Below, piece by piece: positions 3,933-6,103 of a stretch of DNA of 15,568 nt. Within the stretch, counting starts at the first letter, position 1. Every line of letters begins with the position of its first letter. The notes beneath the pieces were generated by a model. It was not told the DNA's origin. It ran no database searches and saw only the letters and a list, made by a program, of their open reading frames with translations. Both the position numbers and the translations under genes were made by a program. Source of the DNA: a virus; UHGV virus genome UHGV-0473420. One strand, given 5' to 3'.

Positions 3933-3962
3933 ATTGCTCTAATAATTCCATATTTTTAAAAC
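3933..3962. repeat. 30-bp direct repeat, copy 1 (ATTGCTCTAATAA-N6-ATTTTTAAAAC)
   Basis: Matches 6074-6103 at 13/13 plus 11/11 positions with a 6-nt variable spacer. Begins 2 nt after the stop of the GT8-like gene. Confidence 0.8.
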
Positions 3963-3990
3963 GTGATGTACACTCATCACGTTTTTTATT
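3958..3990. terminator. intrinsic terminator hairpin, probably bidirectional
   Basis: Perfect 11-bp stem AAAACGTGATG / CATCACGTTTT with 6-nt loop, followed by T-run on plus strand; reverse complement is also followed by a T-rich tract. Flanked by 12-bp inverted arms ATTGCTCTAATA (3933-3944) and TATTAGAGCAAT (3987-3998). Confidence 0.6.
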
Positions 3991-4232
3991 AGAGCAATCT
4001 ATAAGGTGCACTATGTGGCCATTCCGACGGAAATATCACTACTGGCTGATCGCCTTTGTTACGCCGACCGGCGGTATCAGGCATGTCATCACCAGGTATC
4101 GCAACAAGAGACTCACCTTAGCCAGAATTTTACAGGCTGCCATAGGTGAGGGACTGGATACAAATTGCGTAGTCCTTCCACCTTCATACTTAGGAAAAAT
4201 GACCGAAGCACAAGCTAATACGGAACTTTGAA

Positions 4233-5495
4233 ATGAGCACTTCAGCACAAAACCAATCAATCGAAAATGTATCTATCCCTGACGTCCTGAATGCCGGTAT
4301 CCCGGCCATTATCCAGAACATCCGGGCCGCGCAACGCCGCGTTAGTTGTGATGACCTCACAGCACGTTTTTTTGATAATGCGGTTCAGTCAGCGGAGATG
4401 CTTCACGCACAGCTTATTGATGTTTATAACGCAGAAGCTGATAGCCATAACTCCCTGGTAGATGCAGCTGAAAATATGCAGTTGGATCTCGGTCTGAAGG
4501 GTAAAGAAATTGAAGAGCTTCAGCTGGAAATTGAACATTTGAAACGCCAGCAACAGGACGCGATCGAAGATGCGACGCATGACGCCAACCAGCGTGCTGA
4601 TAATGCCGAACGTATAAGCATTGAGCTGGAAACAAAACTCAATGAAATGACCGCGATGGTTGTGCTGCGGAACTCACAGATTTCAACTCTAAAATCTCAA
4701 TATAAAGAGATCATGAAACTTGATCCTTTTAACCTTGAGAAACGCTATAACAAAGCCAAAAGCGAGCGACAGGAACTGCGTAAGCAGATTGTCGACCTTA
4801 ACCAACAGCTCAAAAAGGCTATTAAAGATGCAAGCGAGGCGCGCGTGGCATTTGCTAATAAAAAAGCAGAGGTTACCGAGCTGGTTAATGAAAACGCCAA
4901 ATTTGCGACGCTCAAGAAGGAAATGTATGGCATTACTGAGCGCCGTTTCCCTGCAAGCAAACTCCATCCGACGTTAGGGCAAATCTCATTCTTCCCGCGC
5001 CTCCTGGCTTATGGGATCTCATCACCTAAAGAGTTCAATAACGAGCGTCCTTATATCGTTTCTAAGCTGGACTTTGCTTATCAGTTCTGCTGCGACATGG
5101 GCTATGCCATTGATATCCGTATCAACGAATGGTTGATGCCAAACTTCCAGCCGTTGGCAATTTTCCGCGAGTTCCAGCCGGAAGGTTGGGTAGAGTTCTT
5201 CCATGAATTGATCTGTAAAGAGATGGAAAGCCGCCGCCCGGAATTGGTCCGTCGAGTTGAGTGGGCGCAAGAGGTTATGTTGGCAGATGCAGAGCTGCCG
5301 TTCGAACCGGAATTCATTGATGATCTGGCAACTAAAGGGTTGCATACCCTGTTTGATGTGGTTACCCGCCGTCATGAGCAGTTGGTTGTCGAATTGGGTT
5401 TAGAGGAAACAGCGGCAAGAAGACTTCTCGATGTTTGCTATGCACGTAGCGATGCATGGGAAAAAGAGAACGGCGGCACTATTTACGTTCGCTGA
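4233..5495 (+). CDS. 420-aa coiled-coil protein of unknown function
   Basis: Long ORF with central heptad-like charged region (about residues 80-230, e.g. EIEELQLEIEHLKRQQQDAIED...) and a roughly 190-aa C-terminal globular region. No Walker or nuclease motif recognised. Followed by a strong terminator. Confidence 0.8.
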   Translation: MSTSAQNQSIENVSIPDVLNAGIPAIIQNIRAAQRRVSCDDLTARFFDNAVQSAEMLHAQLIDVYNAEADSHNSLVDAAENMQLDLGLKGKEIEELQLEIEHLKRQQQDAIEDATHDANQRADNAERISIELETKLNEMTAMVVLRNSQISTLKSQYKEIMKLDPFNLEKRYNKAKSERQELRKQIVDLNQQLKKAIKDASEARVAFANKKAEVTELVNENAKFATLKKEMYGITERRFPASKLHPTLGQISFFPRLLAYGISSPKEFNNERPYIVSKLDFAYQFCCDMGYAIDIRINEWLMPNFQPLAIFREFQPEGWVEFFHELICKEMESRRPELVRRVEWAQEVMLADAELPFEPEFIDDLATKGLHTLFDVVTRRHEQLVVELGLEETAARRLLDVCYARSDAWEKENGGTIYVR

Positions 5496-5517
5496 TAGTT
5501 ACAGTGTCACTTTTAAT

Positions 5518-5549
5518 GCTGGTGGAGTGCGCCCACCAGCATTTTTTTC
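5518..5549 (+). terminator. rho-independent terminator
   Basis: Perfect 8-bp GC-rich stem GCTGGTGG / CCACCAGC, 7-nt loop, then a run of seven T. Lies 23 nt after the stop at 5495. Confidence 0.7.
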
Positions 5550-5567
5550 GTCCAATGAGGAGGGCAT

Positions 5568-6074
5568 TTGAGTATTTTCAATAAACACGCACACCAGGAA
5601 CGTCCGTACATCGTCATAGTAGATATTGATGGGACGATATCAGAGGCAACGGAAGACAGGCTGCATTTACTTCCACCACCTGGCAAAGGTGCATTAACAG
5701 AGCACTGGAACGAGTTTAACCTTGCCTGTGACACTGATGCTCCCATCACTCCAGTTATTGATATGGTGCGCCAGTTGTCCGGCATTTACACCCTCTGGTT
5801 TGTAACCGGGCGCTGTGAGATAGCCAGGGATAAAACACGAGCCTGGCTGCGGAAGTATGTAACAAACGGGGCTGAGCCTTTGCTATCTATGCGTCCTGCC
5901 ACCGATGACAGAAATGACGGCCCAGCAAAGATTGATCTCCTTAAGAAAATTGGTCTAAGTAAAATCGCGTTCGCGCTGGAAGATAAGATTGAAGTGGCGC
6001 GTGTTTTCAGGAGTCACGGCGTACTTACGTTAATGGTCAGGGAGTATGAAAACGCGCTTCTCCATCAACAATAA
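5568..6074 (+). CDS. HAD-superfamily phosphatase (polynucleotide 3'-phosphatase / nucleotidase-like)
   Basis: TTG start preceded by GAGGAGG. HAD motif I IVIVDIDGTIS (DxDGT), motif II WFVTGR, downstream K and LEDK acidic motif; resembles the phosphatase domain of T4 Pnkp-type enzymes as recalled. No kinase P-loop present. Confidence 0.65.
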   Translation: MSIFNKHAHQERPYIVIVDIDGTISEATEDRLHLLPPPGKGALTEHWNEFNLACDTDAPITPVIDMVRQLSGIYTLWFVTGRCEIARDKTRAWLRKYVTNGAEPLLSMRPATDDRNDGPAKIDLLKKIGLSKIAFALEDKIEVARVFRSHGVLTLMVREYENALLHQQ

Positions 6075-6103
6075 TTGCTCTAATAAATCTTGATTTTTAA
6101 AAC
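6074..6103. repeat. 30-bp direct repeat, copy 2 (ATTGCTCTAATAA-N6-ATTTTTAAAAC)
   Basis: Direct copy of 3933-3962; first base overlaps the stop codon of the HAD phosphatase gene. Not followed by the hairpin seen at copy 1. Confidence 0.8.

Follow-up and report, generated by a model that had tools for sequence, protein, structure and literature searches.

Direct repeats around pmgR, pmgS and pap in a P1-like phage-plasmid correspond to annotated C1 operators with predicted promoters

Results

A 30-bp direct repeat in the 15,568-nt window (the whole stretch of viral DNA analyzed here) almost certainly represents two promoter-operator modules of the P1-like immunity system, each combining a C1 operator with predicted promoter elements. 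Judged by sequence and position, the repeat is a known regulatory element that had already been annotated, and its copies are ordinary C1 operators and not an insertion scar. The window itself is 97-98% identical to P1 and P7 and collinear with them until ~6360 (P1) and ~6678 (P7), its nearest full-length relatives are P1-like phage-plasmids, and we assign it to this group on these sequence comparisons. Window positions equal those of the P1 record (L001) minus 801, and this offset is constant. The c1 gene lies outside this 15.6-kb window; in P1, it is found beyond the position of the window end.

The two repeat copies, ATTGCTCTAATAATTCCATATTTTTAAAAC at 3933-3962 and ATTGCTCTAATAAATCTTGATTTTTAAAAC at 6074-6103, are identical at 26 of 30 positions, which include exact blocks of 13 and 11 nt, and both 30-mers are the same as those of P1. 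A search of the whole window at ≤3 mismatches returned just these two matches, and none of 200 shuffles yielded a match (a chance expectation of zero for the pair), confirming that the repeat reported in the original prediction is real. Each copy had been described as starting at the stop codon of the preceding gene, which is roughly right: copy 2 shares its first base with the final A of the pap stop codon (TAA 6072-6074), and copy 1 begins 2 nt past the pmgQ stop codon (TAA 3929-3931). The coiled-coil gene, terminator, and HAD phosphatase gene said to be the only contents of the interval are indeed present, but pmgR, the inverted operator Op86b, and a nested hairpin are found there as well (Table 1). 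The phosphatase assignment of pap comes from a Pfam match with an E value of 5e-11; pmgQ had no Pfam match.

Table 1. Features of the window, in window coordinates; former operator names are given in parentheses
Feature	Position	Strand	Basis
O26 (Op82), C1 operator	309..325	-	Orthologous to P1 protein_bind feature L001 1110-1126
Oppp (Op83), weak C1 operator	1216..1232	-	Orthologous to P1 protein_bind feature L001 2017-2033
pmgQ, last gene of upstream operon	3230..3931	+	ORF, P1 annotation
OpmgRa (Op86a), C1 operator, first 17 nt of copy 1	3933..3949	+	P1 annotation
PpmgR, predicted sigma-70 promoter	3934..3962	+	P1 annotation ('predicted')
Terminator-like hairpin, AAAACGTGATG / CATCACGTTTT then T6 run	3958..3987	+	Fold
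OpmgRb (Op86b), C1 operator	3982..3998	-	P1 annotation, motif search
pmgR, 72 aa	4013..4231	+	ORF, translation, P1 annotation
pmgS, 420-aa coiled-coil protein	4233..5495	+	ORF, P1 annotation
Intrinsic terminator after pmgS, 11-bp stem, T7	5515..5550	+	Terminator scan, fold
pap, HAD-type (PNKP-like) phosphatase, TTG start	5568..6074	+	Pfam PF25109, P1 annotation
OpmgT (Op88), C1 operator, first 17 nt of copy 2	6074..6090	+	P1 annotation
P2pmgT, predicted sigma-70 promoter	6075..6103	+	P1 annotation, 801-nt offset
P1pmgT, predicted sigma-70 promoter	6090..6118	+	P1 annotation, 801-nt offset
Leader hairpin of Op88 transcript	6123..6145	+	Fold, alignment
28-aa hydrophobic peptide ORF, first conserved ORF behind Op88	6173..6259	+	Translation

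Evidence for C1 operators

Several observations support the operator assignment. First, the P1 GenBank record places binding sites for 'phage repressor C1' and predicted promoters exactly at the sites corresponding to 3933, 3982, and 6074, and the P7 record does likewise. The P1 annotation describes Op86a as a monovalent, C1-controlled operator that governs pmgR and pmgS expression, and labels OpmgT '100 pct identical to Op88', with reference to two earlier deposits, M25414 and X98146. Second, the C1 operator has an asymmetric 17-bp consensus, ATTGCTCTAATAAATTT, and P1 contains 22 dispersed operators (PMC8546580). Searching the window with this consensus at ≤3 mismatches gave 4 sites, against 0.08 expected: Op88 with 1 mismatch, O26 with 2, and Op86a and Op86b with 3 each, all within the 3' four positions. 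Oppp, with 5 mismatches by manual count, was missed at this threshold; annotated P1 operators, 15 of which we extracted, have 0 to 5 mismatches. Third, the 17-mer operator also occurs at many other P1 operon starts, and the juxtaposition with a preceding stop codon recurs at repL/Op55, pdcB/Op94, and dmt/Op72a.

Finally, the operators are conserved. Op86a and Op86b are retained in all 85 close loci, and Op88 is found at the expected offset in 80 of the 82 loci that reach that far; in the two exceptions (L012 and L020), foreign DNA, which in one case reads like a transposase gene, interrupts pap, and the fetched sequence past it is unlike the window. None of the 13 columns of the Op86a core varies among 84 loci, and the adjoining 3999-4012 segment is highly variable. 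Only this upstream per-column profile is informative, as the profile at Op88 is noisy, with some loci out of register or carrying foreign DNA in pap. More diverged relatives, obtained by tblastn against phages and plasmids, include Cronobacter phage JK004, whose PmgS is 69% identical, and two Salmonella plasmids. All three retain the 13-nt core without change at the two junctions and also have Op86b, while the flanks diverge; mean column identity across the Op88 region of the diverged relatives is just 69%. Scanning a one-genome-per-species collection for PmgS found just 2 loci, both near-identical. Approximately 200 conjugative plasmids were considered as further carriers of Op88 and rejected, as their match to the region is limited to 84 bp of the small-peptide ORF and does not include the operator. 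Binding of C1 to the consensus is taken from the literature and annotation, and our own computations address sequence identity, positional orthology, and conservation in diverged relatives. A shared regulatory site, one of the two readings originally proposed, was correct in substance, as the copies are annotated C1 operators with their promoters; for duplication of that site together with a cassette, we found no evidence.

The interval does not behave as an inserted cassette

The other reading originally proposed was that recombination at a conserved linker had inserted a moron or cassette, so that the repeats would be recombination scars or a target duplication around a mobile unit (pmgS and pap) between pmgQ and the downstream genes. 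The direct orientation of the copies, their position at gene boundaries 2.1 kb apart, the variable presence of pap among lineages, and the mosaic nature of P1-like genomes (PMC9603915) would all fit such an event, to which we nevertheless assign next to no probability. First, we queried 968 plasmid, 19 phage, and 1039 complete E. coli genome records with an artificial junction of the two flanks, as expected for an empty site, and it never matched in one piece. The reciprocal junction, in which the end of pap is followed by the repeat and the start of pmgR, was joined in only 3 records, and the one examined carries a 1125-bp deletion inside pmgS, a natural deletion present in some plasmids that is unrelated to the repeat; a tandem duplication or excised circle was accordingly rejected. 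Second, pap is the sole variably present gene of the interval, and the Salmonella plasmids L089 and L090 lack it yet have both operators in place. The indel is thus confined to the stretch from the pmgS terminator to Op88 rather than extending from one repeat to the other. Third, pmgR and pmgS are core genes: both are reported to belong to the 21 genes most highly conserved across P1-like phage-plasmids (PMC9603915). Of the two, pmgR is essential (PMC9024508), and pmgS is non-essential in P1 (PMC10695390). Fourth, the element is not confined to the ends of the supposed cassette: a third, inverted copy lies within the interval, and more than a dozen further copies are scattered through the P1 genome, the very distribution that the original prediction had named as speaking against insertion. 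Finally, GC content shows no anomaly across the interval (0.45-0.49 inside versus 0.45-0.52 outside), and the mosaic break points fall at 6263, 6360, 6678, and 6884, none of them at 6074-6103. These positions are 160-800 bp past copy 2, where the hypervariable cargo region begins.

Operators overlapping predicted promoters

In the operator explanation, the TTGCTC of the operator would also serve as the -35 hexamer of a sigma-70 promoter, and the second conserved block (ATTTT-TAAAAC) would comprise the end of the 17-nt spacer and the -10 hexamer. For PpmgR, the predicted elements are TTGCTC at 3934-3939, a 17-nt spacer, and TAAAAC at 3957-3962. Such a fusion of operator and promoter would account for the span of the similarity, 30 nt, and for the location of each copy immediately behind the preceding operon's stop codon. 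Promoter identity here is that of the GenBank prediction, as a generic sigma-70 consensus scan did not call the annotated promoters (8/12); PpmgR was passed over because its -10 element lacks the final T. The scan did propose another candidate adjoining Op88, ATGAAA-18-AATAAT at 6046-6075, and it found no promoter for pap. At the putative promoter, the -10 hexamer varies to TAAAGC, TGAAAC, or TAAGGC in close relatives and to TGAAGC, TAAGGT, or TAGATA in diverged ones. Because the -10 element is not strictly conserved, and because the P53 promoter of P1 has a different layout, with its -10 inside the operator, transcription may in reality start elsewhere than annotated; two P1 transcriptome studies report no start sites for these promoters.

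The exactness of the second block bears on how the two sites arose. Op86a and Op88 could be paralogous, the module having been duplicated, or homogenized by gene conversion, within the P1 lineage, which would explain why identity extends, further than C1 binding requires, to an exact 11-mer, ATTTTTAAAAC. In P1, this 11-mer occurs only at Op86a, Op88, and one unrelated site, and other P1 operators have merely a looser T-run in common. In JK004 and the Salmonella plasmids, however, the second block is not the same at the two sites, nor is it the same from one lineage to another (TTTTTTGAAGC versus TTTTTTAAGGT; TTCTTTAAAAC versus ATTTTTAGATA). The blocks therefore drift independently, and their identity in the P1 lineage may be a coincidence within a constrained T-rich spacer and -10 element. 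Moreover, six P1 operators have the same general layout, with a T-rich run and TA ~19 nt after the operator start also present at Op51, Op53, Op68, and a site at 94724 in the c1/coi region, which suggests that they represent a class of promoters and not a single recent duplication. We consider paralogy unlikely; it is in any case compatible with the operator explanation, as it concerns origin only.

A hairpin nested between inverted operators

Op86b contains an inverted third copy of the 13-nt core (core 3986-3998), 49 nt downstream of Op86a, and a hairpin with an 11-bp stem (4 G/C pairs), a 6-nt loop, and a T6 run is nested between the two operators. This inner hairpin alone folds at -13.4 kcal/mol (z -5.3), and the 3925-4005 segment, in which the operator cores form an outer stem, folds at -26.9 kcal/mol (z -8.15). 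The terminator scan missed the hairpin, as its T run is absorbed into the A/T extension of the stem. Its architecture suggests an intrinsic-terminator-like element of the pmgN-pmgQ operon, and in the JK004 and Salmonella lineages, two pairs of its stem have changed in a compensatory manner, which amounts to one or two evolutionary events only.

The strength of the complete fold, with the operator cores as its outer stem, raises the question of whether the Op86a/Op86b pair acts mainly as an RNA or DNA structure, for example as a 66-nt hairpin or cruciform serving as an RNA-processing site or terminator extension and not as protein-binding sites, with the 6074 copy being a chance partial match. 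This idea seems very improbable. The outer stem never varies and so provides zero covariation support, behaving instead like a protein-binding site; the 13-mer stands singly, with no inverted partner, at 6074 and at many P1 promoters; and a chance origin of the 30-mer pair conflicts with its expectation of zero.

The region behind Op88

Behind Op88, the window contains ~9 kb of cargo (Ead/Ea22, DUF7739, DUF551, and unknown genes) that replaces pmgT-hot of P1. The leader hairpin varies in sequence, but a hairpin occupies this position in three lineages; read on the minus strand, it scores as a terminator in the terminator scan. The N-terminus of the 28-aa peptide is conserved in L089 and JK004, and collinearity among relatives first breaks just past its ORF.

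Discussion

If the sites function as operators in the predicted manner, C1 and its co-repressor Lxc would occupy them in a lysogen and block RNA polymerase, silencing pmgR-pmgS (perhaps with pap) and the long variable operon behind Op88, which P2pmgT/P1pmgT would drive. Upon C1 inactivation, both units would fire as early transcripts. The hairpin between the operators should stop read-through from pmgQ, and the predicted -10 element at its foot would place the start of the new transcript inside the loop, allowing it to escape termination. The exact promoter, the terminator function, and restart within the loop are the parts of this explanation that we infer. We propose, tentatively and as a possibility that we would not yet favor, that Op86a, the hairpin, and Op86b form a 'stop-and-restart' insulator and that Op88, the leader hairpin, and the 28-aa peptide form a cargo-entry module, both acting as functional units. 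Neither layout is annotated in the P1 GenBank record, and both are kept down to 69% PmgS identity.

OpmgRa/OpmgRb and OpmgT of P1 and P7, with PpmgR and P2pmgT, have the same sequence, orientation, and position relative to pmgQ, pmgR, pap, and the downstream operon as the elements of the window, and only the cargo behind Op88 differs. Other P1 operators (Op72ab of ban, Op53 of kilA-repL, Op51 of c4-ant, Op94 of lpa, and Op99a-e of c1/coi) share the asymmetric 17-bp consensus, overlap promoters at operon starts, and often adjoin the preceding stop codon. There are differences in layout: Op72ab forms a bivalent palindrome of overlapping sites, whereas Op86b is 49 nt from Op86a and the two flank a hairpin; and the annotated -10 element lies inside Op53, whereas Op86a and Op88 supply the annotated -35 element.

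The 'stoperators' of mycobacteriophage L5 act mainly as elongation blocks within operons. In L5/L1, as in P1, one repressor has many asymmetric sites scattered in short intergenic gaps, and the L5/L1 sites have been likened to the dispersed asymmetric operators of P1 (PMC1934351). The repressor family and motif are unrelated, however, and annotation places the P1 sites over promoters; of the sites considered here, perhaps only Op86b, which lies past the predicted start, could act as a roadblock. Phage morons, which are promoter-gene-terminator units between conserved genes, resemble pap in that it is present in some lineages and absent from others and sits between a terminator and the promoter of the next operon. 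Unlike a moron, pap has no promoter that we could find, pmgR-pmgS is a conserved core, and the repeats are not insertion boundaries.

Beyond correct annotation, these results have little importance, although they remove a false lead to a mobile cassette. The conserved hairpin nested in inverted operators, and the conserved leader and small membrane peptide that open a hypervariable region, may be of minor interest to P1 specialists. An insulator, if it exists, would end the upstream operon and let a C1-gated promoter restart transcription inside the hairpin loop, and a cargo-entry module, if real, would put the hypervariable region under the control of the immunity repressor through Op88, the leader hairpin, and the 28-aa membrane peptide. 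For the phage-plasmid, the prediction is that the lysogen would keep pmgR-pmgS and the variable accessory operon behind Op88 silent and that inactivation of C1 would turn them on.

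Both repeat copies coincide with annotated C1 operators and predicted promoters

The 30-bp direct repeat of the original prediction was confirmed at 3933-3962 (copy 1, ATTGCTCTAATAATTCCATATTTTTAAAAC) and 6074-6103 (copy 2, ATTGCTCTAATAAATCTTGATTTTTAAAAC), where the two sequences agree at 26 of 30 positions, including identical stretches of 13 and 11 nt. No further match to the 30-mer with three or fewer mismatches was found in the window, and none of 200 shuffles contained one. Each copy had been said to begin at the preceding gene's stop codon; this is correct for copy 2, which starts with the last A of the phosphatase TAA, but copy 1 starts 2 nt past the upstream TAA. 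The predicted content of the interval between the copies, a coiled-coil gene, its terminator and a HAD phosphatase gene, was incomplete, having missed a 72-aa gene (pmgR, 4013-4231), an inverted third copy of the 13-nt core at 3986-3998, and a hairpin located between copy 1 and this inverted core. The phosphatase, Pap, matches PF25109, the PNKP-type HAD phosphatase family.

In megablast searches, the region grouped with P1-like phages and phage-plasmids (P1, P7, RCS47, SJ46, JL22, and others; 96-98% identity), with collinearity extending to ~6360 in P1 (AF234172; constant 801-nt offset) and to ~6678 in P7. Binding sites for 'phage repressor C1', the P1 immunity repressor, coincide exactly with all three core positions in the P1 GenBank record, and the P7 record carries identical operator annotations. 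Because operators and predicted promoters are annotated at the repeat positions, the 30-mer can be read as an operator plus a promoter, with the 13-nt block as the predicted operator core including the -35 hexamer and the 11-nt block as the last part of the spacer together with the -10 hexamer. A shared regulatory site duplicated with the cassette had been one of two readings offered for the repeat, and these annotations bear out its regulatory part.

Annotated and predicted features around the two repeat copies (window coordinates)
Feature	Position	Strand	Remarks
Op83 (Oppp)	1216-1232		weak C1 operator, in the window
pmgQ	3230-3931		P1 annotation
OpmgRa (former Op86a)	3933-3949	+	P1 annotation: 'controls expression of pmgR and pmgS'
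PpmgR	-35 TTGCTC 3934-3939; -10 TAAAAC 3957-3962		predicted sigma-70 promoter, P1 annotation; overlaps operator
Outer stem	3933-3945 with 3986-3998		the two operator cores
Inner stem	3958-3968 with 3975-3985		AAAACGTGATG/CATCACGTTTT
OpmgRb (Op86b)	3982-3998	-	P1 annotation
pmgR	4013-4231		72 aa; P1 annotation
pmgS	4233-5495		P1 annotation
pap	5568-6074		P1 annotation
OpmgT (Op88)	6074-6090	+	P1 annotation: identical to Op88 of earlier deposits M25414, X98146
P2pmgT	-35 6075-6080; -10 6098-6103		predicted sigma-70 promoter, P1 annotation; hexamers as PpmgR

Comparisons with other P1 operators agree with this assignment. First, the C1 operator consensus is an asymmetric 17-bp sequence, ATTGCTCTAATAAATTT, and 22 operators are scattered across P1 (PMC8546580); a motif search of the window found four sites with three or fewer mismatches to this consensus versus 0.08 expected, one of them Op82 (309-325). 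Second, among 15 annotated P1 operators that we extracted, a T-rich run followed by TA lies ~19 nt from the operator start in Op51, Op53, Op68, Op86a, Op88, and a site at 94724 (c1/coi region), and the exact 11-mer ATTTTTAAAAC is common only to Op86a and Op88. Third, other P1 operators also begin at or beside the preceding stop codon (P1 coordinates: Op55 from 51575, with the repL end at 51571; Op94 from 89904, with the pdcB end at 89902; Op72a from 68667, with the dmt end at 68676). A stop-codon start is thus a general trait of tightly packed P1 operon junctions and is not an insertion mark. Judged from sequence and annotation, both 30-mers are very probably C1 operator-promoter modules, although we are less certain of the details than of this identity. 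That the two modules arose as paralogues would be compatible with this explanation but is unlikely.

The interval and its operators in related genomes

The original prediction also considered the interval a cassette or moron inserted by recombination and called for a comparison with empty sites. An artificial query joining the end of pmgQ, one repeat copy, and the sequence 3' of copy 2 was not matched in one piece in any of 968 plasmid, 19 phage, or 1039 E. coli complete-genome records. The reciprocal junction (pap end, repeat, pmgR start) was joined in three plasmids. In the one examined, E. coli H15 plasmid A, most of pmgS is lost to an in-frame internal deletion of 1125 bp (window 4276-5400; L087, the locus of this plasmid, 2840-2850) that is unrelated to the repeat; the other two plasmids gave a similar joined match. 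Behind Op88, H15 plasmid A has a type I hsdR gene in the opposite orientation.

Among 85 close loci (82 from IMG/VR and GTDB, plus P1, P7, and the window), Op86a and Op86b were present in all, and Op88 stood at the expected offset in 80 of the 82 that extend far enough. In the remaining two, the IMG/VR viral contigs L012 and L020, foreign DNA breaks into pap at window-equivalent 5746 and 5601, respectively, with no window match beyond the break in the fetched sequence; the foreign stretch in L020 resembles a transposase gene. Collinearity with the window ends at 6263 (18 loci), 6360 (29), 6678 (21), or 6884 (4), which places the break points 160-800 bp past copy 2, beyond a small ORF, and none at the repeat. 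The Op86a core had no variable columns (0/13) in these relatives, and the adjoining 3999-4012 segment is highly variable. Both pmgR and pmgS are listed with the 21 genes most conserved in P1-like phage-plasmids, where pmgT-humD forms hypervariable region 8 (PMC9603915); pmgR is essential in P1 (PMC9024508), and pmgS, pap, and pmgT are non-essential (PMC10695390). Given that none of the records searched has the flanks joined by a single copy, break points that never fall at the repeat, the conservation of pmgR and pmgS, and an unremarkable GC content over the interval, the insertion reading fails, and it is exceedingly improbable that the repeats are a recombination scar.

More diverged relatives point to the same C1 modules. 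In Cronobacter phage JK004, whose PmgS is 69% identical, the order matches that of the window (pmgQ-like gene, Op86a, hairpin, inverted Op86b, pmgR, pmgS, pap, Op88, leader hairpin, small peptide). Salmonella plasmids pCFSAN058588 and p21-SA00706-0 carry Op86a, hairpin, Op86b, pmgR, and pmgS; pap was not found in either by tblastn, and Op88 lies ~65 nt past the pmgS stop, followed by the leader hairpin and small peptide. At both junctions the 13-nt operator core is unchanged in all three lineages and the flanking DNA has diverged (mean column identity 69% in the Op88 region), the pattern that a protein-binding footprint would leave. The second block of the 30-mer (TTTTTTGAAGC and TTTTTTAAGGT in JK004; TTCTTTAAAAC and ATTTTTAGATA in the Salmonella plasmids) is less conserved than the core, keeping a T run followed by TA or TG but not the exact -10. 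The only variable gene in the interval is pap, which is bounded by the pmgS terminator and Op88, not by the repeats. In the window, pap starts with TTG and lies between a strong terminator (5515-5543 plus T7) and Op88, with no recognisable promoter in 5496-6074; in the Salmonella lineage without pap, Op88 directly follows pmgS (3764-3830 in both loci, L089 and L090).

A hairpin nested between inverted operators

Folded as RNA or single-strand DNA, 3925-4005 gave -26.9 kcal/mol (z = -8.15). In JK004 and the Salmonella plasmids, two pairs of the inner stem have changed in a compensatory way (G-C to A-U; A-U to G-C). This stem is followed by a T6 run that is also the 3' end of Op86b. The outer stem is invariant and hence uninformative on structure; that the inverted Op86a/Op86b pair acts by RNA or DNA structure only is very unlikely. 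We infer that the inner hairpin serves as a terminator of the pmgN-pmgQ operon, which a generic scan missed because the A/T stem extension consumes the T run. With the annotated -10 of PpmgR at the hairpin foot, a PpmgR transcript would have its 5' end in the loop, without the 5' arm, and so would presumably escape termination.

The second site and the variable region

A leader hairpin behind Op88 (6123-6145, ACATGCCGC-AAGGC-GCGGCATGT) is present in all three lineages with a different sequence in each. Its minus strand reads as an intrinsic terminator with a T-rich tail and its plus strand has no T tail; possible roles are stabilising a 5' leader or terminating antisense transcription. The motif CAATCAATCA...GGAGC behind Op88 is invariant. 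Directly behind Op88, a 28-aa hydrophobic peptide ORF (6173-6259; MNTAFKIIMAAIYFWLFSITFGGIVAHG) with a good Shine-Dalgarno sequence keeps its N-terminal segment in all three lineages and is unannotated in P1 AF234172; the first collinearity break among relatives, 6263, falls just past it. An 84-bp piece covering the ORF body (6180-6263) occurs at ~99% identity, unannotated and without the operator, in ~200 conjugative E. coli plasmids, and the P1 record notes its likeness to DNA beside the EcoDXXI and R124 hsd loci.

The window end (15283-15568, minus strand) is a 95% match to P1 lxr, so the variable region spans ~6264-15280 (~9 kb) here versus ~2.5 kb in P1. Every ORF screened in it is on the plus strand, and it contains Ead/Ea22 paralogues, DUF7739, DUF551, and three tandem paralogues. 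The Ead/Ea22-like genes, lambdoid-type accessory genes within the P1 variable region, lie at 7983-8603 and 8901-9569 on either side of the DUF7739 gene (8600-8899), and match each other at 78% identity over 41 nt at their 5' ends. The tandem genes (10083-12283; 131, 149, and 312 aa) share ~50 N-terminal residues and an internal YAAPPAP motif, the 312-aa product has a C-terminal DUF551 domain, and a 33-nt RBS-containing module recurs at the junctions (9542, 10451, and 11110). Two neighbouring small ORFs are another tandem paralogue pair and share a 71-nt direct repeat (14275-14345 and 14574-14644; 73% identity) at a spacing of 299 nt. GC content drops to ~0.40 at 12400-13400 versus ~0.47 elsewhere.

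Implications for C1 regulation

According to the P1 annotation, the co-repressor Lxc 'enhances binding of C1 to all its operators'. In a lysogen, C1 with Lxc on the operators would occlude the overlapping promoters, Op86b, 3' of the start, could provide a second contact or a roadblock, and loss of C1 activity would release both operons. These elements are named in the P1 and P7 records and belong to a regulatory system studied for decades, from which the window shows no departure. What is mildly new is limited to two putative features, the conserved operator-terminator-operator nesting at the first site and, at the second, the conserved leader and peptide through which the hypervariable region is entered.
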